Of a stretch of DNA of 7,862 nt, positions 1 through 7,862 are shown in pieces. Position numbers and translations under genes: made by a program. The DNA is from a virus (taxonomy: Duplodnaviria > Heunggongvirae > Uroviricota > Caudoviricetes): IMG/VR virus record IMGVR_UViG_2548876959_000005, positions 1 to 7,862 of that record; one strand, written 5' to 3'. The stretch's first letter is position 1. Each line of letters begins with the position of its first letter. The notes beneath the pieces were generated by a model. The model had not been told where the DNA came from. It was given only the letters and a program-made list of their open reading frames with translations, and ran no database searches.

Positions 1-65
1 TTAGTTACGAGCGACATTGCTCCGTGTATTCACTCGTTGGAATGAATACACAGTGCTTACTCGTA

Positions 66-536
66 CTAATAAAATACCCAATTTTCTGTTTCTTGGTTGT
101 GCCCAAAGTTATATTCAATATCTGGTGTTGATGTATCAATATTCTTCATCCCATCAACAAGAGTTGATACAACAGCCAAATCTTGTTTGATTCTCATTAA
201 ATGGTATTTCTTCCGGCGCAATAAACTCTCAATGGCAAGTTTCTTCGTTGGGAATGCAAAAGATCTTTCTGCATTTTTTGCTACTTTCTTAATTGCATAT
301 CTATTTCTCCTTTGTTTCCATTCCTGTAACCACTGATTTGGTGCTGGTTTAAAATTAACAATCCAATGCGCAGGAACCAACCATGCATAATGCTCTGTCT
401 GATGAAAAGCTATATATTGAAGTGCGAATATTTTTATCCCATCTTCTTCAACTGTCGCCTGGAATCTCCAGAAAACAGGCATTCCATCATGTTCAGTTTC
501 TGATTCAGGAAAAGGTACGCTCCATGATTTTGTCAT
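66..536 (-). CDS. Hypothetical 156-aa protein, second gene of the pL operon, immediately downstream of N
   Basis: Intact ORF on the minus strand. Its ATG (534-536) lies 8 nt after the N stop codon (545-547), and a GAGGTG ribosome-binding site overlaps that stop, so it is tightly coupled to N. No family recognised from the sequence; Trp/His-rich, soluble-looking. Confidence 0.6.
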   Translation of the reverse strand: MTKSWSVPFPESETEHDGMPVFWRFQATVEEDGIKIFALQYIAFHQTEHYAWLVPAHWIVNFKPAPNQWLQEWKQRRNRYAIKKVAKNAERSFAFPTKKLAIESLLRRKKYHLMRIKQDLAVVSTLVDGMKNIDTSTPDIEYNFGHNQETENWVFY

Positions 537-544
537 ATCTCACC

Positions 545-844
545 TCAAATAAGTGGTTTGCTGCCTAATTTCATTTTCTGGCGACCAACACAAGTCACAC
601 CCATTTCACTGCGTGGCTTGCGGTAGTAAATACGGTTCTGTTTACGCTCGACTTCTTCTGCCTTCTTGCAGCGAAGGCTTCCGAGTGATGCTGCTTTATC
701 TGCTCTGACGCAACCAGAGAGCTTTAGCGCAATTATTCGCGCCAGTCGCTGCTCTTGCATTGCCTGTTCACGTTGAGCCTGTCTGCGTGCTCTGCGGCGA
801 TTTCTGGCGTTATCGTCAGCCAGATATGTAATGACTACTGTCAT
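545..844 (-). CDS. N: Antitermination protein N (lambda/phi21 N family)
   Basis: 99-aa ORF with an N-terminal arginine-rich motif (NARNRRRARRQAQREQ) and a C-terminal segment (RIYYRKPRSEMGVTCVGRQKMKLGSKPLI) that matches the conserved C-terminus of lambdoid N proteins as I recall them. GGAGG ribosome-binding site 5-6 nt upstream of the ATG; sits downstream of pL/nutL. Confidence 0.85.
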   Translation of the reverse strand: MTVVITYLADDNARNRRRARRQAQREQAMQEQRLARIIALKLSGCVRADKAASLGSLRCKKAEEVERKQNRIYYRKPRSEMGVTCVGRQKMKLGSKPLI

Positions 845-951
845 GTTGACCTCCGATGATTGACTTTGGCGGTGACGCGCCGGGTGCTTATCTTCCGGTT
901 GCCGTCGTGCAGCTGCACTTCACGTCACCCCAAAGCCAACTACTCTTTGGT

Positions 952-993
952 TCCCGCATTTCGGCGGGACAATCCCATCAATGTTAAAGAGCC
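952..993 (-). promoter_or_regulatory. nutL: nutL: boxA-like element plus boxB hairpin (N utilisation site)
   Basis: Read on the minus strand: GCTCTTTAACA (boxA-like, plus coordinates 982-992), a 12-nt spacer, then TCCCGCCGAAATGCGGGA (plus 952-969; 6-bp stem, 6-nt loop). The hairpin is identical to the nutR boxB at 2650-2667. Located between pL and the N start, as in lambda. Confidence 0.65.
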
Positions 994-1038
994 TGCCAAT
1001 CTGTTCCGTTTGGCTACCAGCGTCCTGCTGATGGCTAA

Positions 1039-1125
1039 AGAATACTGTAGGTATTTTATTGTGTAAATACCCAAGGTATTTATTTTTGATGAAATAATGA
1101 TAAACAAATGAATACAAAGGATATT
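1039..1125 (-). promoter_or_regulatory. pL promoter with three OL operator-like palindromes
   Basis: Three AATAC-N5-(G/A)TATT sites at 1041-1055, 1066-1080 and 1111-1125. On the minus strand, -35 TTTACA (1062-1067) and -10 TATTCT (1039-1044) with a 17-bp spacer, overlapping sites 1 and 2. Orientation is toward N. Confidence 0.55.
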
Positions 1126-1211
1126 TATTTTTTCGGTATCTGCTTGTTCAGTGCTTTTTATGCGGGATATGTGAAGTGGATCCCGATAGCTATTGCTGCC
1201 GGGATTATGGG

Positions 1212-1580
1212 TTAGTCAGCGAAGGTTAAGACGAGAATTACCTTAATGATGTCTGCTACAACAGACACGGCCATAGATAAACCAAAGACGATCCAAGCCA
1301 TAGAGATGTCTTCACTACCATCGTATAGAGTTCCGTAATCACTGGTGTAAGGCGTAAATGTCGCGCCTTGATACAACAGGTATAAGCTTGATCCATAGAG
1401 GATAAATGCAGATATCCCTTGTATTGCTATGACCACTAGAATCATGAAACGAGCTGATCTATGCGCCCAAGCCTGGCTTATTTTTTCTGATAGAGATTTC
1501 GCAATAAAAGCATGCGCTAAGCCGTAAATTGTTGAGATTGCCAACATCCCAAAAAAGCTTGCTATAGCGGTTCCAACCAT
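1212..1580 (-). CDS. Small integral membrane protein (about 3 predicted transmembrane segments) co-transcribed downstream of cI; candidate exclusion or abortive-infection protein
   Basis: 122-aa ORF with three long hydrophobic stretches. GGGGGA ribosome-binding site 6 nt upstream of its ATG. Starts 19 nt after the cI stop, on the same strand, in the position lambda uses for rexA/rexB. Confidence 0.6.
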   Translation of the reverse strand: MVGTAIASFFGMLAISTIYGLAHAFIAKSLSEKISQAWAHRSARFMILVVIAIQGISAFILYGSSLYLLYQGATFTPYTSDYGTLYDGSEDISMAWIVFGLSMAVSVVADIIKVILVLTFAD

Positions 1581-1599
1581 AAGCGTCCCCCTTGCGTGA

Positions 1600-2316
1600 T
1601 CAAACCAGCCTTAGTTTTGTCTCAATTGCAACGCCTATAATCTTGCAGTTTCCATTGATTGGCACGAGAGGCCATGCAGGGTTAAGTCCCTTGAGGTATT
1701 TATTTCCGCCGTCGATTATCAGCTTCTTGAATGTTGCTTCGTTAGAGTCAGAAAGTTTTGCTATGACCAGGCTGCCGTTGATCGCCTCCCTTCCGGTATC
1801 GAAAAGAACGAATGTTCCCTCTGGAATGCTTAACCCAACCGGTGCCGTCATTGAATCACCTTCCACTTTAAGCCAGAACGCATTGCCTTGAATATGCGCG
1901 TCAGACTCAAGCCAAACATCTATGTCTTTAATGGTGTATGGTTCGCATGCTTCACACCACGAGCCAGCCTGGATACTGCTTAACACCGGATACCTCTTTC
2001 CTGCTCTGTATTCCCCTGCATACCTTACGTTGGCATCGCTCTTAAGGCTTTCTGCCTGTTCTGCAACCTTGGCAGCAATTGACTGGCTAAAATCAGCAAT
2101 TGAGACTTGCAACAAACGTGCAAAACCAGATGCGACCTCAACGTTTAGCGCGTTTCTGCCATTAAGATAATGCCCTACCGCTCCTTGGGTGATACCCAGT
2201 TCATCAGCGATTGAGTATTGGGTTATTCCCAATTCTTTCTTTTTTGACTCATACAAAGCCTTAAGCCGCTTAGCGTCTTCGAGCTGTTCTGTCGTCAGTG
2301 ATTTTTTATTTTCCAT
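1600..2316 (-). CDS. cI: cI-type phage repressor (N-terminal HTH, C-terminal LexA-like S24 autopeptidase domain)
   Basis: 238-aa ORF. N-terminus (LTTEQLEDAKRLKALYESKKKELGITQ) resembles lambda cI. Has the Ala-Gly cleavage site (SIQAGSW), the catalytic-serine motif EGDSMTAP and the lysine motif FKKLI. Divergent from cro across an operator region. Confidence 0.9.
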   Translation of the reverse strand: MENKKSLTTEQLEDAKRLKALYESKKKELGITQYSIADELGITQGAVGHYLNGRNALNVEVASGFARLLQVSIADFSQSIAAKVAEQAESLKSDANVRYAGEYRAGKRYPVLSSIQAGSWCEACEPYTIKDIDVWLESDAHIQGNAFWLKVEGDSMTAPVGLSIPEGTFVLFDTGREAINGSLVIAKLSDSNEATFKKLIIDGGNKYLKGLNPAWPLVPINGNCKIIGVAIETKLRLV

Positions 2317-2351
2317 AGCTTAATTCTAATAGCTAAGGTACTTAAACTAAA

Positions 2352-2393
2352 AATACCCTGAGTATTGATTGCTTTGAATACCTGTAGTATTCT
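2352..2393 (+). promoter_or_regulatory. OR operator sites with pR promoter
   Basis: Palindromes AATACCCTGAGTATT (2352-2366) and GAATACCTGTAGTATTC (2376-2392), same consensus as the OL sites. pR -35 TTGATT (2365-2370) and -10 TATTCT (2388-2393) with a 17-bp spacer. GGAGAG ribosome-binding site at 2412-2417 precedes cro. Confidence 0.6.
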
Positions 2394-2422
2394 TTGTTCA
2401 TGGTTAATAACGGAGAGTGCAT

Positions 2423-2617
2423 ATGATTCGAATGACACTTGCCGATTACGCCAAAATCCATGGACAGGCTAAAGCAGCCAGTGACTTTGGTGTAATCCAG
2501 TGCGCTATCAGCAAGGCCATTCTGGCAGGCCGTAACATTATGGTTACGGTAAAGCCTGATGGCAGTGTGATTGGAGAGGAAGTTCGTCCTTTCCCAAGCA
2601 ACAAGAAAAACAAATAG
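2423..2617 (+). CDS. cro: Cro repressor
   Basis: Small ORF divergent from cI. Sequence ([39 protein letters not shown]...PFPSNKK) is clearly related to lambda Cro. ATG at 2423 chosen for its 6-nt spacing from the ribosome-binding site; the GTG at 2417 in the ORF track is an alternative. Confidence 0.85.
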
Positions 2618-2623
2618 TAACAC

Positions 2624-2667
2624 CGCTCTTTAACAGTCATGGTCCTCATTCCCGCCGAAATGCGGGA
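2624..2667 (+). promoter_or_regulatory. nutR: nutR: boxA plus boxB hairpin
   Basis: CGCTCTTTAACA (2624-2635) closely matches the boxA consensus. After a 14-nt spacer comes TCCCGCCGAAATGCGGGA (2650-2667), a 6-bp stem with a 6-nt loop. Lies between cro and cII, as in lambda. Confidence 0.7.
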
Positions 2668-2674
2668 ATACAAC

Positions 2675-2700
2675 GCGCATAAGTTGATGCGCATAACTTC
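2675..2700 (+). terminator. Possible tR1-like hairpin or pause site downstream of nutR
   Basis: GCGCAT (2675-2680) pairs with ATGCGC (2687-2692) around a 6-nt loop, followed by a moderately T-rich stretch (ATAACTTCTTATTTGTT). Position matches lambda tR1; not a strong intrinsic terminator. Confidence 0.3.
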
Positions 2701-2725
2701 TTATTTGTTAAGGAAATACTTACAT

Positions 2726-3019
2726 ATGGTTCGTGCAAACAAACGCAACGAGGCTCTAAGAATCGAGAGTGCGTTGCTTAACAAAATCGCAATGCTTGGA
2801 ACTGAGAAGACAGCGGAAGCTGTGGGAGTTGATAAGTCGCAGATCAGCAGGTGGAAGAGGGACTGGATTCCAAAGTTCTCAATGCTGCTTGCTGTTCTTG
2901 AATGGGGTGTCGTCGACGACGACATGGCTCGATTGGCACGACAAGTTGCTTCGATTCTCACCAATAAAAAACGCCCGGCGGCAACCGAGCGTTCTGAACA
3001 AATCCAGATGGAATTTTAA
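2726..3019 (+). CDS. cII: Transcriptional activator cII
   Basis: 97-aa ORF (MVRANKRNEALRIESALLNK...ERSEQIQMEF) that I recall as nearly identical to lambda cII. AAGGA ribosome-binding site upstream. The track ORF beginning at 2639 is a spurious 5' extension that runs through nutR. Confidence 0.9.
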   Translation: MVRANKRNEALRIESALLNKIAMLGTEKTAEAVGVDKSQISRWKRDWIPKFSMLLAVLEWGVVDDDMARLARQVASILTNKKRPAATERSEQIQMEF

Positions 3020-3041
3020 TAACATCCAACGAGGTAATTAT

Positions 3042-3314
3042 ATGCGAAACAAAGGCTTTAATCCACCTGATACACACAAAGAAGCCAAGCGTTTGCGCTT
3101 CCTTCGTTCCATTGATGAAAGAACTCAAATCTCTTTTGTGAAAGTTGCCAGAACTGAGCTTCTGAAGGCTGAGGCGAGGGCGTTGCTCCCGTCTCTACCA
3201 AAAGAGGAGGGATATACGTTCATTCCAAACGCATTTCTGGAAAAGCTGCTCAAAGAAGACATATCCGTAAGTCAGTTTAACGATGTTCTTAAGGTCTTTC
3301 GTCAAGGCAGGTAG
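3042..3314 (+). CDS. Hypothetical 90-aa protein inserted between cII and O
   Basis: ORF with a GAGGT ribosome-binding site 7 nt before the ATG at 3042; its stop is 2 nt before the O start. Basic and helical-looking (MRNKGFNPPDTHKEAKRLRFLRSIDERTQ...). The track ORF from 2769 is an out-of-frame overlap with cII; the real start is probably 3042. Confidence 0.55.
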   Translation: MRNKGFNPPDTHKEAKRLRFLRSIDERTQISFVKVARTELLKAEARALLPSLPKEEGYTFIPNAFLEKLLKEDISVSQFNDVLKVFRQGR

Positions 3315-3316
3315 TT

Positions 3317-4264
3317 ATGAGCAATACAGCAAAAATCTACGATTTCAGCGCCGCACACGAGCGCAGGAGCAACAGGATGGAGAACCAGAAAACTGGTTAC
3401 ATTCCGTTGTACCGGAGCATTCTGAAACAGTCATGGGCGAAAGATGTTTATCTTCGCACCCTGTGGGAAAACCTTCTCCTGAATGCCGCCAGAAAGCCAT
3501 ACAAAGCGAATTTCAAAGGTCATGAATGGCATCTGCAACCCGGTCAACTGGTTGTGACAGCAGCTGATTTAGGTCTTCAGTTATGCGACAGACATGGCAA
3601 GCCAGCAAGCCGTGATCAGGTTGAGCGGATGCTTCAGGTTTTTGTGAAAGAGGGGATGATCTCCATTGATGGAGAGAAGCAAAAAGGTCGTGTGATAACC
3701 ATCACAAATTACCATGAATATGCTCAAAAAATGGACAATTTACCCGCACATGAAGCCGCACAAACAACCGCACATGATGCCGCACATGGCGAAGCCAGTA
3801 ATGGCGCGGCTTTCAGCGCACATGCCGCACATGAAAGCGCACATGAAGCCGCACAAACAACCGCACATCATGAACAAGAAGGTATTAACAAGAATATAAA
3901 TAATACCCCCCTACCCCCCAATGGGGGAGGCGATGGGCAGGTTAAACCTGAACGTCGCAAGGCAGAACGAATCGACTACGAATCCTTCCTGAACGCCTAC
4001 AACACCGAAGTCGGTGACAGACTGCCACACGCTGTTGCGGTCAACGAGAAACGCAAACGCCGCCTGAAGAAAATCATCCCGCAACTGAAAACGCCAAACG
4101 TGGACGGTTTCAGAGCGTATGTCAGGGCGTTTGTGCATCAGGCCAAGCCGTTTTACTTCGGAGACAACGACACGGGCTGGACAGCTGATTTTGATTACCT
4201 GCTGAGGGAAGATTCGTTAACTGGAGTACGGGAAGGGAAGTTTGCAGACAGGGGGATTGCATGA
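3317..4264 (+). CDS. O: Replication initiator protein, O-like (origin-binding N-terminal domain, repeat linker, C-terminal domain)
   Basis: 315-aa ORF starting MSNTAKI, like lambda O. Internal repeat-encoded linker ([10 protein letters not shown]...) contains the iterons. C-terminal motif [10 protein letters not shown]. Its stop overlaps the helicase start (ATGA at 4261-4264). Confidence 0.8.
3744..3905 (+). repeat. Putative replication origin inside the O gene: about 9 iteron copies followed by an AT-rich segment
   Basis: Tandem units of roughly 12 bp (CCGCACATGAAG / CCGCACAAACAA / CCGCACATGATG / CCGCACATGGCG) at 3744-3791, then five more at 3817-3872. Includes a 31-bp direct repeat (3745-3775 and 3839-3869). 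Followed by AT-rich AACAAGAAGGTATTAACAAGAATATAAATAATA (3873-3905) and then a C-run/G-run element. Confidence 0.65.
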
Positions 4265-5637
4265 GACAGGATATCGAAGCGAGCGTTATCGGTGGCCTGC
4301 TGATTGGTGGATTAACACCAACTGCCAGTGACGTTCTGGCAACGCTTGAGCCGGAAGCGTTTTCAATTCCGCTCTACCGGAAAGCCTTCGAGGTTATCCG
4401 CAAGCAGGCGCGAAACAGAAAACTAATCGACGCGATGATGGTTGCCGAGGCGTGCGGAGAGGAGCATTTCACGTCAATCCTGATGACCAGCAAAAACTGC
4501 CCGAGCGCCGCAAACCTGAAGGGATATGCCGGAATGGTCGCGGATAACTATCACCGCCGTCTGGTGCTGGAAATCATGGATGAAATGCGTGAACCAATTC
4601 AGAGCGGAACCATCGACGCATCGAGTCAGGCGATGGATGAGCTTGTAAAGCGTCTTTCAGCCATCAGAAAGCCCCGTGACGAGGTTAAACCGGTACGGTT
4701 AGGGGAAATCATTACTGACTACACTGACACGCTTGACAGGCGTCTGAGGAACGGAGAAGAGTCAGATACCCTGAAGACCGGAATCGAAGAACTTGATGCC
4801 ATCACCGGAGGGATGAACGCGGAAGACCTGGTGATAATCGCTGCTCGTCCTGGTATGGGGAAAACAGAACTGGCGCTGAAGATTGCCGAAGGCGTTGCAA
4901 GCCGCGTTATTCCTGGTTCTGACGTCCGGCGCGGAGTATTGATTTTCTCAATGGAAATGAGCGCATTGCAGATTGCAGAGCGAAGTATTGCCAACGCCGG
5001 GAGGATGTCGGTTAGCGTGCTGCGAAATCCTGCATCGATGGATGACGAAGGCTGGGCGCGTGTTGCTAACGGCATGAGTCAGCTTGCAGATTTGGATGTA
5101 TGGGTAGTCGATGCCTCGCGGTTATCGGTCGAAGAAATACGCTCAATCGCAGAACGGCATAAACAGGAAAATCCAAACCTGTCACTCATCATGGCGGATT
5201 ATCTTGGCCTGATTGAGAAGCCGAAAGCAGATCGCAACGACCTCGCAATTGCTCACATCTCCAGAAGCCTGAAGGCGATGGCGAAAGACCTGAAAACGCC
5301 AGTTATCTCCCTAAGTCAGCTTTCGCGCGATGTTGAGAAGCGACCAAATAAACGACCGACAAACGCAGATTTGCGTGATTCAGGAAGCATTGAACAGGAC
5401 GCAGACTCAATCATCATGCTCTATCGGGAAGCGGTATATGACGAGAACAGTAGCGCCGCGCCATTTGCTGAAATCATCGTGACGAAAAACCGTTTTGGCT
5501 CGCTTGGTACGGTTTACCAGCGGTTCTGTAACGGACACTTTGTGGCATGTGACCAGGATGAAGCCAGACAGATTTGCACAGCATCAAATGCACCTGCTGC
5601 GCGTGGCAGACGATATGCACAAGGGGCTGACGTATGA
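4261..5637 (+). CDS. Replicative DNA helicase, DnaB family (phage-encoded)
   Basis: 458-aa ORF with a Walker A motif (AARPGMGKT), a Walker B-like region (LIMADYLGL) and an [10 protein letters not shown] arginine-finger-type motif typical of DnaB-family helicases. Start overlaps the O stop. Confidence 0.9.
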
Positions 5638-5662
5638 CCATCTACATCACTGAGCTTGTAAC

Positions 5663-5694
5663 AGGCCTGCTGGTAATCGCAGGCCTTTTTATTT
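5663..5694 (+). terminator. Rho-independent terminator (tR2-like) after the replication genes
   Basis: Perfect 8-bp GC-rich stem AGGCCTGC (5663-5670) / GCAGGCCT (5679-5686) with an 8-nt loop, followed by TTTTTATTT. Confidence 0.65.
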
Positions 5695-5709
5695 GGGGGA
5701 GAGTAAATC

Positions 5710-5916
5710 GTGGTTGAGTTGATTTTTTCTGCATTGAGGATTCTCGGTGCCATGTGGATGGTGGCGACGTTCATTGTGGTTGCCAGCAGTTTTGTCCGGT
5801 TGGTAGGCGAAGGTAAAGACCTGGCGGGTGTGATTTTCGGTAGCATTCTCCTGTGGGTGATTATCGGTGTTGCGCCTGTCGCTGTAGCAAAAATGGCGTG
5901 GCGTTTTGTGAGTTGA
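5710..5916 (+). CDS. Small hydrophobic membrane protein (68 aa, about 2 transmembrane segments)
   Basis: ORF from a GTG start with a GGGAGAG ribosome-binding site 7 nt upstream; two long hydrophobic stretches. Lies just after the tR2-like terminator in the lambda ren position. Could also start at an internal ATG. Confidence 0.45.
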   Translation: MVELIFSALRILGAMWMVATFIVVASSFVRLVGEGKDLAGVIFGSILLWVIIGVAPVAVAKMAWRFVS

Positions 5917-5933
5917 ACTGAGGGTAAGTATCG

Positions 5934-6311
5934 ATGGACGAATCAAGAAAGCAGTTTGAAGAAAGTTGGTTGCGACGTGGGGGCGAATCTTCAGACCTTA
6001 TCCGTTACCCTGAAAATCACCATGAAATTGGCAGCGGTAATATTGGTGGTCAATACGTGATGGACGATGTTCAAGGCCACTGGCAAACGTGGCAGGCATC
6101 GCGAGCAGCTATTGAACTGGATATCGACTGGCCCGAGTCGAATGACGACTTCTGGAAAGATGGTGAAGAAGGCGCTTATGCGATGGGCTATATGGATGGG
6201 CGTGACAAAACGGTAATTGTAGTAATGAAAGCTATCAGAGCCGCTGGAATTAAAGAGAAGAATTTCGATGAAGCAAATATACATGCTTCGCAACGAAGCA
6301 ATCAGAAATAA
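5934..6311 (+). CDS. Hypothetical acidic 125-aa protein
   Basis: ORF with a GAGGG ribosome-binding site 8 nt upstream of the ATG. Acidic and Trp-rich (DIDWPESNDDFWKDGEEGAY). 3' end overlaps the ninB start by 44 nt. No family recognised. Confidence 0.55.
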   Translation: MDESRKQFEESWLRRGGESSDLIRYPENHHEIGSGNIGGQYVMDDVQGHWQTWQASRAAIELDIDWPESNDDFWKDGEEGAYAMGYMDGRDKTVIVVMKAIRAAGIKEKNFDEANIHASQRSNQK

Positions 6312-6714
6312 CGCTATAGACGCAATACTCTCACTTCCGATCGACGACAAGTCACCTCACGAAGTCCACGTCAAAGAACCTAAGCGAACCAAAGCGCAGA
6401 ACGACCGTATGTGGCCGATGCTTCAGGACGTTTCCCGTCAGGTGCTATGGCATGGTCAACGGCTGGCGCCGGAAGACTGGAAAGACCTGTTCACTGCCCT
6501 GTGGCTTAAGACCAAAAAATTGGAGCAACGAAGTGTGCCTGGTATCGATGGTGGTGTTGTCATGCTTGGCGTGCGTACCAGCAAAATGCGAAAGGCCAGC
6601 ATGACTGAGCTTATCGAAATCATGTTCTGGTTCGGCTCAGAGCGCAACGTGCGGTGGAGTGATGACTCCCGGCGAGAGTATGAATGGTCACAACGAAAAG
6701 GGAAGGCTGCATGA
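6268..6714 (+). CDS. ninB: NinB/Orf-family recombination protein
   Basis: 148-aa ORF that aligns by eye with lambda NinB over conserved blocks (QNDRMWPMLQDVSRQVLWHG, SERNVRWSDDSRREYEW). Its stop overlaps the next start (ATGA). Confidence 0.8.
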   Translation: MKQIYMLRNEAIRNNAIDAILSLPIDDKSPHEVHVKEPKRTKAQNDRMWPMLQDVSRQVLWHGQRLAPEDWKDLFTALWLKTKKLEQRSVPGIDGGVVMLGVRTSKMRKASMTELIEIMFWFGSERNVRWSDDSRREYEWSQRKGKAA

Positions 6715-7238
6715 CTATCAAATCAAATACGCCAGCACACGACAAGGACTGCTGGCAAACGCCGCTTTGGCTTTTTGATGCACTGGATATTGAGTTTGGA
6801 TTCTGGCTGGATTCGGCAGCGAGCGACAAAAATGCTCTGTGCGCTCACTGGCTAACTGAGGCTGACGACGCGCTAAATTCTGAGTGGATAAGCCACGGTG
6901 CAATCTGGAATAACCCACCGTACAGCAATATCAGGCCGTGGGTGGAAAAAGCCGCTGAGCAGTGCATACAACAGCGACAGACGGTAGTGATGCTTGTGCC
7001 AGAGGATATGTCTGTCGGATGGTTCAGCAAGGCTCTGGAGAGTGTTGACGAAGTTCGTATTATCACTGATGGACGGATTAATTTTATCGAACCATCGACA
7101 GGGCTGGAGAAGAAGGGAAACAGCAAAGGCTCCATGCTGCTGATTTGGCGACCGTTCATTAGTCCTCGACGGATGTTTACTACCGTATCCAAAGCGGCAT
7201 TGATGGCGATCGGGCAGGGCGTCAGGAGGGCGGCATGA
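6711..7238 (+). CDS. Phage DNA N6-adenine methyltransferase (Dam family)
   Basis: ORF with a [13 protein letters not shown] motif and the catalytic NPPYS motif typical of phage Dam-type methyltransferases. Start set at ATG 6711 (GGGAAGG ribosome-binding site, overlaps the ninB stop) rather than the upstream ATG 6684 in the track. Confidence 0.8.
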
Positions 7239-7411
7239 GACGACAGCGACGAAGTATCACCGACATCATCTGCGAAAACTGCAAATACCTTCCAACGAAA
7301 CGCTCCAGAAATAAACGCAAGCCAATCCCAAAAGAATCTGACGTAAAAACCTTCAACTACACGGCTCACCTGTGGGATATCCGGTGGCTAAGACATCGTG
7401 CGAGGAAATGA
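7235..7411 (+). CDS. ninE: NinE-like small basic protein
   Basis: 58-aa ORF not in the supplied track ([58 protein letters not shown]), translated by hand; matches my recollection of lambda NinE. ATG overlaps the methyltransferase stop (ATGA). Confidence 0.7.
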
Positions 7412-7413
7412 CA

Positions 7414-7773
7414 ATGGATTATTCACAGTTAAGTGATTTTGAAATTAACGTGGCGGTATTCGAAGCCATTCATAACGGATCACCGGATTACAAAGAAGGT
7501 GAGAATGGCGCGATGGTGTTTATCTCATTTGAGGGAGACATTGTAAACGGAGACGCAGTTGAAGTAGAAGTTGAGCGCGGATCCTTTAACCCATGCGCAA
7601 ACCCAGCAGACGCATGGCCGATTATTGAAAAATACAGGATTAGCATTATCAATCTCGATGAAGACGAGTGGGGTGCACGCGGTGTGGCCTACTGTAAATC
7701 TAAGCGAGCTATACATGAAAATCCCCTCCGCGCCGCCATGATTGTCTTTCTCATGATGCAGAGAATCCAATAA
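7414..7773 (+). CDS. Hypothetical nin-region protein (119 aa)
   Basis: ORF with a GAGGA ribosome-binding site 7 nt upstream of ATG 7414. ATG 7408, which overlaps the ninE stop, is an alternative; the track's 7372 start is unlikely. Acidic; its stop overlaps the ninF start (TAATG). Confidence 0.6.
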   Translation: MDYSQLSDFEINVAVFEAIHNGSPDYKEGENGAMVFISFEGDIVNGDAVEVEVERGSFNPCANPADAWPIIEKYRISIINLDEDEWGARGVAYCKSKRAIHENPLRAAMIVFLMMQRIQ

Positions 7774-7862
7774 TGCTTAGCCCATCCCAATCCCTTCAAT
7801 ACCAGAAAGAAAGCGTCGAGCGAGCTTTAACGTGCGCTAACTGCGGTCAGAAGCTGCATGTG
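7773..7862 (+). CDS. ninF: NinF-like protein, 5' portion (runs off the window end)
   Basis: Hand translation from ATG 7773 gives MLSPSQSLQYQKESVERALTCANCGQKLHV, which matches my recollection of the lambda NinF N-terminus (Cys-x-x-Cys zinc-ribbon-like start). Truncated by the window edge. Confidence 0.6.
   Translation, partial: MLSPSQSLQYQKESVERALTCANCGQKLHV

Follow-up and report, generated by a model that had tools for sequence, protein, structure and literature searches.

Genes at the locus

The window analyzed here, a stretch of 7,862 nucleotides (nt) corresponding to positions 1 to 7,862 of IMG/VR virus record IMGVR_UViG_2548876959_000005, is a canonical lambdoid early region. On its minus strand, tight against the gene for the antiterminator N, lies an open reading frame (ORF) of 156 amino acids (aa), which an earlier note on this DNA had singled out as a candidate anti-restriction, anti-defense or host-takeover gene. 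The ORF is a genuine gene under purifying selection that is carried on a small mobile cassette, and its predicted timing of expression and the conserved basic surface of its product tentatively suggest a host-directed role very early in infection. The features that concern this gene are the following.

1..70, minus strand: extended RNA stem-loop with no T-run, directly after the ORF stop codon (minimum free energy (MFE) −30.2 kcal/mol, z = −6.9, 0 of 200 shuffled sequences as stable)
66..536, minus strand: the 156-aa ORF, with its ATG at 536-534 and its stop codon TAG at 68-66, a member of the HK97 gp45 / 933W NP_049479 / PHROG 1636 family
537..597, minus strand: proposed 5' edge of the mobile cassette, which codes for the N C-terminus in the window and is a noncoding spacer in 933W and HK97
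540..546, minus strand: Shine-Dalgarno (SD) sequence GAGGTGA of the 156-aa ORF, inside the end of N, read from the sequence
545..547, minus strand: TGA stop codon of N, with a 2-nt overlap with the SD sequence and 8 nt before the ORF ATG
545..844, minus strand: N antiterminator gene, 99 aa, with the arginine-rich motif NARNRRRARRQ and a lambda-type C-terminus, ...GRQKMKLGSKPLI
1039..1067, minus strand: pL-like sigma-70 promoter TTTACA-17-TATTCT, from a consensus scan, the only promoter-like site upstream on this strand

Direct reading of the minus strand confirmed the position and length of the ORF and the overlap of its ribosome-binding site with the N stop codon, the junction of the two genes being 5'-TTTGAGGTGAGATATG-3'. 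The stop codon of the upstream gene falls within the SD sequence of the downstream gene, and a scan found no terminator-like site between N and the ORF. The same SD motif is present in 933W, HK97 and 611R6, as well as in the diverged homologues L101 and L102, and the ribosome-binding site of the ORF is predicted to be strong. The product of the upstream gene matched PHROG 271 (“anti-termination protein N-like”, E = 3.5e-36) over residues 1–98 of 99, and gave a weak match to the Pfam family N_peptide. In the MFE fold of positions 495–560 (minus strand) the SD sequence, as AGGUGA, is paired with codons 8–10 of the ORF (UACCUU) and the start codon is enclosed, a pairing which would favor the true translational coupling of N and the ORF.

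Identity, conservation and distribution of the 156-aa gene

The 156-aa protein matched PHROG 1636 (function unknown) over its full length (E = 2.7e-112, residues 1–156 on profile positions 1–156 of 156). A protein with 100% identity is encoded after N in 933W (NP_049479, ST933Wp19), Phi24B (vb_24B_11c), BP-4795, Min27 and many Shiga toxin (Stx) phages of the Stx1 and Stx2 types, and the identity to HK97 gp45 (NP_037731) and to an unannotated ORF of H-19B is 99.4%. The gene is also carried by the BASEL lambdoid phages Bas106, Huey and Dewey. The proteins of HK97, 933W, Phi24B and H-19B are encoded at the corresponding position, behind N in the pL operon, and have 99–100% identity; these phages differ from the window in that their 127-aa N stops 58 nt upstream, so that the stop/SD overlap is absent there. 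The gene is already catalogued, but uncharacterized, and is not new to the databases. The statement in the earlier note that the protein matches nothing recognizable held to the extent that it has no characterized homologue, but not as regards its being known as HK97 gp45, 933W NP_049479 and PHROG 1636. We found no publications on the protein under any of its identifiers, and most of the well-studied Stx phages, along with HK97, carry the gene without an annotation, a domain or a solved structural relative.

Sequence and structure searches gave no confident match to a characterized protein. The view that the protein is distinct from Ral, Gam, Kil, CIII and SieB was borne out, as an hhalign comparison excludes Ral (probability 0.13% against Ral of phi367) and the absence of a Pfam match excludes the other four at that level. 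Comparison by hhalign with H-19B gp17, of the P22 gp17 family, gave a probability of 1.6%.

Homologues with 55–85% identity were found in Escherichia, Salmonella, Cronobacter, Pectobacterium, Brenneria, Rosenbergiella and metagenomes, and an alignment of 20 homologues, down to 55% identity, contained 40 invariant columns. The pairwise ratio of nonsynonymous to synonymous substitution rates (dN/dS) was 0.07–0.17 wherever dS was unsaturated; elsewhere dS was saturated and dN was only 0.1–0.3. DNA of the ORF was present in 598 of 5,426 complete E. coli genomes (~11%), at 833 places with no more than four per genome, and its annotation was always “hypothetical protein”. At least 80% of the ORF length was kept in 593 of the 598 carrier genomes, and disruption of the ORF in close relatives, which the earlier note had named as evidence that would count against its proposal, was thus not what we observed. 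Based on these data, the ORF is a genuine gene under purifying selection. A tblastn search of plasmids produced only 11 records, all non-mobilizable, which included some oversized “plasmid” records and several of 8–54 kb; the latter may be prophage or excised-phage DNA, and the plasmid matches do not appear to link the gene to the leading regions of conjugative plasmids.

The gene travels with the 3' end of N

The GC content of the ORF is 36.3%, versus 47.6% for the window and 49% for N. A DNA query that spanned N and the ORF (window 1–900) matched 332 phage records, and only 87 matched the ORF protein. Based on the deviant GC content, the absence of the gene from many phages that share the N region and its varied neighbors, the 156-aa gene appears to be accessory, mobile and non-essential.

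The upstream limit of the mobile segment was apparent from the comparison with 933W-type phages, whose identity with the window by megablast stops at ~625–629, inside N. 933W and HK97 have a different N allele of 127 aa, the TGA stop codon of which corresponds to window positions 597–595 in a four-way DNA alignment. The 58-nt spacer between N and the ORF in these two phages matches the final 58 nt of the window N coding sequence exactly (compared with L003 and L004 at 2943–3000), and in the window those 58 nt encode the N C-terminus, ...GVTCVGRQKMKLGSKPLI.

We surveyed 80 IMG/VR loci that encode an identical 156-aa protein. A junction of 8 nt (once 3 nt) between N and the ORF was found at ~19 of the 80 loci, and a 933W-type N that stops 58 nt upstream of the ORF (once 68 nt) at ~28. 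A third N-like allele, with a gap of 131–133 nt (once 331 nt), was present at 12, and at the remaining loci other small genes intervene. The stop/SD overlap on which the earlier note had built its case for coupling is therefore real in the window, but depends on the N allele.

Among the same 80 loci, the ...GVTCVGRQKMKLGSKPLI C-terminus was joined to N-termini like that of the window and also to lambda-type (MDAQTRRRERRAEKQAQW...) and P22-type (GNAKTRRHERRRKLAIERD...) ones. This C-terminal segment is common to N alleles whose arginine-rich N-termini are of at least three kinds. We considered whether the C-terminus of the window N (...GRQKMKLGSKPLI) could be a read-through of an intergenic spacer and rejected this, since it is common to lambda-type and P22-type N alleles. 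That the C-terminus is genuine is also consistent with the PHROG 271 alignment reaching residue 98 of 99. Because lambda-type and P22-type N alleles have this C-terminus in common, the spacer of 933W and HK97 is a relic of the 3' end of a lambda-type N, left by a recombination joint near GTGACTTGTG.

Of the two arrangements, the tight N-stop/SD junction is probably the more ancient. The overlap is kept in L101 (83% identity), which has the same TTTGAGGTGAATATG junction, and in L102 (71% identity), which has a 933W-like N C-terminus and whose N stop codon is inside the SD sequence (GCGAGGTGAGGATG), with a 2-nt gap. That the overlap is retained with a different type of N C-terminus in one of these two diverged homologues seems to support the tight junction as the older state.

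On the other side of the ORF, the 65 nt after the stop codon had two or fewer mismatches in 67 of the 76 loci that hold them. In relatives, an intrinsic terminator follows ~105–135 nt after the ORF stop codon (~66 of 72 loci), a distance which lies beyond the edge of the window. Beyond the terminator the downstream genes vary, and were Ea10/Ssb, the cIII-kil region or other small ORFs. In the diverged homologues the terminator is directly after the ORF (L101 and L102) or ~45 nt after it (Brenneria and Pectobacterium). The sharp 5' homology boundary in N, the conserved 3' stem-loop, the terminator and the differing genes beyond it indicate that the gene travels as a small low-GC cassette composed of the 3' end of N with the SD sequence, the ORF, the stem-loop and an intrinsic terminator.

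The stem-loop at positions 1–70 is conserved in most of the E. coli loci and absent from the diverged homologues, which have a plain terminator in its place. RNase III cleavage or stabilization of the 3' end is a possible role, by which the N-ORF mRNA would be set apart from the downstream genes. An Rfam scan of window positions 1–2600 gave no match.

Neighboring genes in other phages

The proposal in the earlier note that the region after N is a slot for variable cargo agreed with our survey of related phages, as Ral occupies the same slot in phi367 and phi296. Both of these phages hold ral as well as the 156-aa gene, and in phi367 Ral and two small ORFs are located between N and the 156-aa gene. 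In H-19B, gp17 and the 156-aa gene are separate neighboring ORFs, and in Brenneria and Pectobacterium prophages the homologue is the last gene before xis-int. The neighbors therefore vary by phage and include Ral, gp17, Ea10/Ssb, cIII/kil and xis-int. Homologues are also present in the virulent-looking siphoviruses Bas81, NX263 and L100, where they stand first in an operon that adjoins a divergent intergenic region and are followed by a ParB-like protein. The homologue in L100, a 48-kb siphovirus-like contig, has 85% identity to the 156-aa protein, and the next gene (1310–1576) encodes an 88-aa member of PHROG 14587, “anti-restriction protein”, to which the 156-aa protein is unrelated by hhalign. 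Beside the remote homologues we found no conserved partner gene, and their neighbors were mutually unrelated.

The 156-aa gene resembles several known accessory genes in its position. Lambda Ral, P22/H-19B gp17 and Ea10/Ssb are likewise encoded by small, non-essential early genes of the pL operon that are variably present between N and cIII/kil. The 156-aa protein is larger than Ral (66 aa) and gp17 (103 aa) and has no sequence relationship to them. There is also a likeness to morons, such as HK97 gp15, in that the gene is on a GC-deviant, self-contained insert which has its own terminator (in relatives) and moves between unrelated genomes. Classical morons, however, carry a promoter of their own that allows expression in the prophage, whereas no promoter-like site was found for the 156-aa gene by consensus scan and its expression should depend on pL.

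Predicted expression from pL

A consensus scan found neither a promoter-like nor a terminator-like site between pL and the ORF (minus strand, 537–1038). The predicted order of the operon is pL, nutL, N, the ORF and the first terminator, and the gene would be co-transcribed with N from the predicted pL, ahead of the operon's first intrinsic terminator. This is in accord with the claim of the earlier note that the ORF is made whenever N is made, in that the two genes are tight against each other and the first intrinsic terminator follows the ORF, with none between it and N. From this position before the first terminator we infer immediate-early, N-independent expression. In lambda, ral is located after tL1, whereas the 156-aa gene precedes the first terminator. 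Its placement would make the 156-aa protein one of the first to be produced on infection or induction, when phages deploy their counter-defense and takeover functions.

Properties and predicted fold of the protein

The 156-aa protein has a mass of 18.6 kDa and a pI of 9.07. Its residues 66–117 together carry a net charge of +13 and are flanked by acidic ends. Its description in the earlier note as rich in Trp and His was fair for Trp (seven residues, 4.5%), whereas the six His (3.8%) represent only a modest enrichment. The conserved residues include K84, K87, R91, R107, K109, H112 and R115, and neither a membrane segment nor an enzyme motif was identified in the protein.

AlphaFold2 (AF2) modeling with the remote homologues resulted in a predicted local distance difference test (pLDDT) score of 95.3 and a predicted template modeling (TM) score of 0.82; a run limited to 20 close homologues reached a pLDDT of only 60 and was set aside. 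In the model retained, strands span residues 19–30, 33–46 and 50–55, helices 56–61 and 66–74, a further strand 83–86 and a long helix 98–130, and the C-terminal tail is ordered. The predicted fold is thus a Trp-rich three-stranded beta-meander, after which come two short helices, the fourth strand and, finally, a helix of 33 residues, one face of which carries conserved Lys and Arg.

An exhaustive profile search identified 87 representative proteins at E ≤ 1e-3 among 1.84 billion searched. The remote homologues were mostly 130–160 aa in length with 20–29% identity, were encoded in phage early regions, and all belonged to PHROGs with no known function. In the 49-member set A3, all 49 proteins matched PHROG 1636 and 41 matched PHROG 13631, and a reciprocal tblastn search from P0048 recovered the Stx-phage ORF across 95% of its length. 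A Foldseek search of BFVD gave 11 matches at E ≤ 1e-3. By both profile match and predicted fold, the 156-aa protein belongs to a wider phage superfamily (PHROG 13631/25384; ~130–160 aa), and the predicted fold is confined to phages.

The members of PHROGs 13631, 25384 and 28215 and the BFVD neighbors, which include proteins of Erwinia phiEa2809, Achromobacter phiAxp-3, Rhizobium RHph_N38, Cellulophaga phi17:2 and others, have the same predicted fold (Foldseek E 5e-7 to 3e-3, TM ≤ 0.65). They share a core motif in which the beta-meander ends in “ET” and is followed by K..K...RFAF.T...A...L..RK....HL. They differ from the 156-aa protein in having only 12–29% identity to it, and all are uncharacterized; the enterobacterial subfamily has an N-terminal segment, WSVPFPES, and a C-terminal motif, YNFGHNxETExW, that most of them lack.

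Possible functions of the 156-aa protein

The interpretation to which we lean, tentatively and with some doubt, is that the 156-aa protein acts on the host as an immediate-early factor whose binding target is nucleic acid or host machinery that handles it, with counter-defense as the leading sub-case. We were led to this by the earliest possible expression of the gene, its apparent dispensability and horizontal mobility, the anti-restriction and anti-nuclease genes in whose company it is found, and the conserved basic surface of its product. In such a scheme, the protein would be made as soon as infection or induction begins, without waiting for or depending on antitermination, and would bind nucleic acid or a nucleic-acid-handling host machine via its basic face. 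This binding might protect the incoming genome or disarm a host function, by a means other than DNA mimicry. The broader proposal, that the superfamily represents a new and widespread phage family of immediate-early counter-defense or host-takeover proteins with its own fold and a basic binding face rather than DNA mimicry, seems rather doubtful; its lambdoid members would then have been inserted between N and the first pL terminator, to be produced in step with N within minutes of the onset of infection.

The anti-restriction, anti-defense or host-takeover role put forward in the earlier note was argued from position and timing, and could fit the context of the gene. That context is now better supported by the position of the first terminator, the low GC content, the N-stop/SD overlap kept in diverged homologues and the PHROG 14587 gene next to the L100 homologue. 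The idea draws on the likeness to T7 Ocr (gp0.3) and ArdA, each of which is the first or near-first protein produced on entry and is dispensable. Ocr and ArdA are strongly acidic DNA mimics. A DNA mimic of this type was ruled out for the 156-aa protein by its pI of 9.07 and +13 basic core, and its model had no fold similarity to solved structures.

Several lines of evidence weigh against a host-directed, counter-defense role. Scans of the 156-aa protein against Pfam, NCBIfam and PADLOC, and of 49 family members against Pfam, identified nothing above noise, the best PADLOC score (Cas1_II, E = 0.018, 12 bits) being itself noise. Sequence searches of the PDB with two profiles returned only coiled-coil and basic-helix noise (E ≥ 0.23), and no solved-structure fold neighbor was found in the PDB, including among the solved anti-defense proteins. 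PHROGs 1636, 13631 and 25384 are all of “unknown function”, and no homologue has a characterized role. The anti-defense models of DefenseFinder, when applied to the gene carriers phi296 and phi367, were reported to identify only a methyltransferase, Ral and Gam (PMC12502783). In addition, guilt by association would be a weak guide in the mosaic early regions of phages, and the immediate-early timing is derived from predicted terminators. The predicted SD-sequestering hairpin at 495–560, on which a functional translational coupling of the ORF to N might depend, was likewise no more stable than shuffled sequence (z = +0.38).

A basic, possibly dimeric protein that is encoded first in an operon would fit a transcription regulator equally well. 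The protein could on these grounds bind DNA or RNA to regulate the phage's own program, for example early transcription, N action or the lysis-lysogeny decision, and not be aimed at host defenses. We consider a regulator unlikely, yet deserving of serious attention.

That the protein assists phage recombination or replication, for example by partnering Red-, Erf- or Sak4-type systems or by binding DNA ends or single-stranded DNA, seems distinctly improbable. The basic protein is encoded in a lambdoid operon that includes gam-bet-exo or erf-abc2; however, its co-occurrence with Red-, Erf- and RecT-type modules is indifferent, other cargo and a terminator lie between them, and the predicted fold has no similarity in the PDB to Rad52, Redbeta, Erf, Gam or SSB. 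In L005, genes for a Sak4-like AAA_24 protein and a DUF3799 nuclease immediately precede that of the remote homologue, and the L018 homologue is in an early operon with a DUF2800 nuclease gene ~5 kb upstream, but the neighbors of the remote homologues are otherwise mutually unrelated.

The moron-like cassette, with its deviant GC content and own terminator, would also suit an exclusion or defense gene that is expressed from the prophage and protects the lysogen from other phages, like lambda sieB or rexAB, and SieB occupies a similar slot in lambda. We consider this very unlikely, as there is no promoter-like site upstream of the ORF within or after N, and expression would therefore depend on pL, which is repressed in lysogens. 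PADLOC gave no meaningful match, homologues occur in virulent-looking phages, and the protein lacks a membrane segment or enzyme motif. That the ORF is spurious, or decaying and functionless, has virtually no likelihood, since even though no annotation goes beyond “hypothetical protein”, this is effectively refuted by its conservation (dN/dS of 0.07–0.17, 40 invariant residues, intact in 593 of 598 genomes), the 87 representative proteins at E ≤ 1e-3 and an AF2 model with a pLDDT of 95 that is driven by co-variation.

What sets the 156-aa gene apart is its prevalence in model and Stx phages, its predicted position before the first terminator and a confidently predicted fold without a solved relative. 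If the counter-defense interpretation were true, it would provide a function for a long-ignored gene of HK97, 933W, H-19B and Phi24B, phages that serve as models or are of clinical importance. Either an anti-defense family or a modulator of Stx-prophage induction, new in each case, could emerge; should the protein be a dispensable regulator, the result would be an ordinary one.

Other features of the window

The remaining genes are arranged as expected for a lambdoid early region, in the following orders.

Minus strand: 156-aa ORF (66-536), N (545-844), pL-like promoter (1067-1039), 122-aa membrane protein (1212-1580), cI (1600-2316)
Plus strand: cro, cII, O-type initiator, DnaB-type helicase, NinB, Dam-family methyltransferase, NinE, NinX

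The 122-aa hydrophobic protein encoded just downstream of cI (1212–1580, minus strand) is predicted to span the membrane and belongs to PHROG 6534 (function unknown). It had no match in Pfam, NCBIfam or PADLOC. Its gene occupies the slot of rexAB in lambda and of stk in 933W, and is a candidate for an exclusion gene expressed in the lysogen.

Inside the O-type initiator gene are two arrays of a 12-bp repeat (CCGCACATGAAG/A, ~3.8 copies each), at 3744–3788 and 3825–3868, which encode a His/Ala-rich segment and are probably the origin iterons. The Dam-family N6-adenine methyltransferase (6684–7238, Pfam E = 1e-64) has a 31-nt overlap with the end of ninB; such an enzyme is a known self-methylation route around restriction, and this one is carried by the same phage as the 156-aa gene. 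The cII ORF as listed (2639–3019, 126 aa) probably extends too far upstream, because the Pfam CII domain covers residues 30–120, and the real start is likely to be an ATG near 2726.
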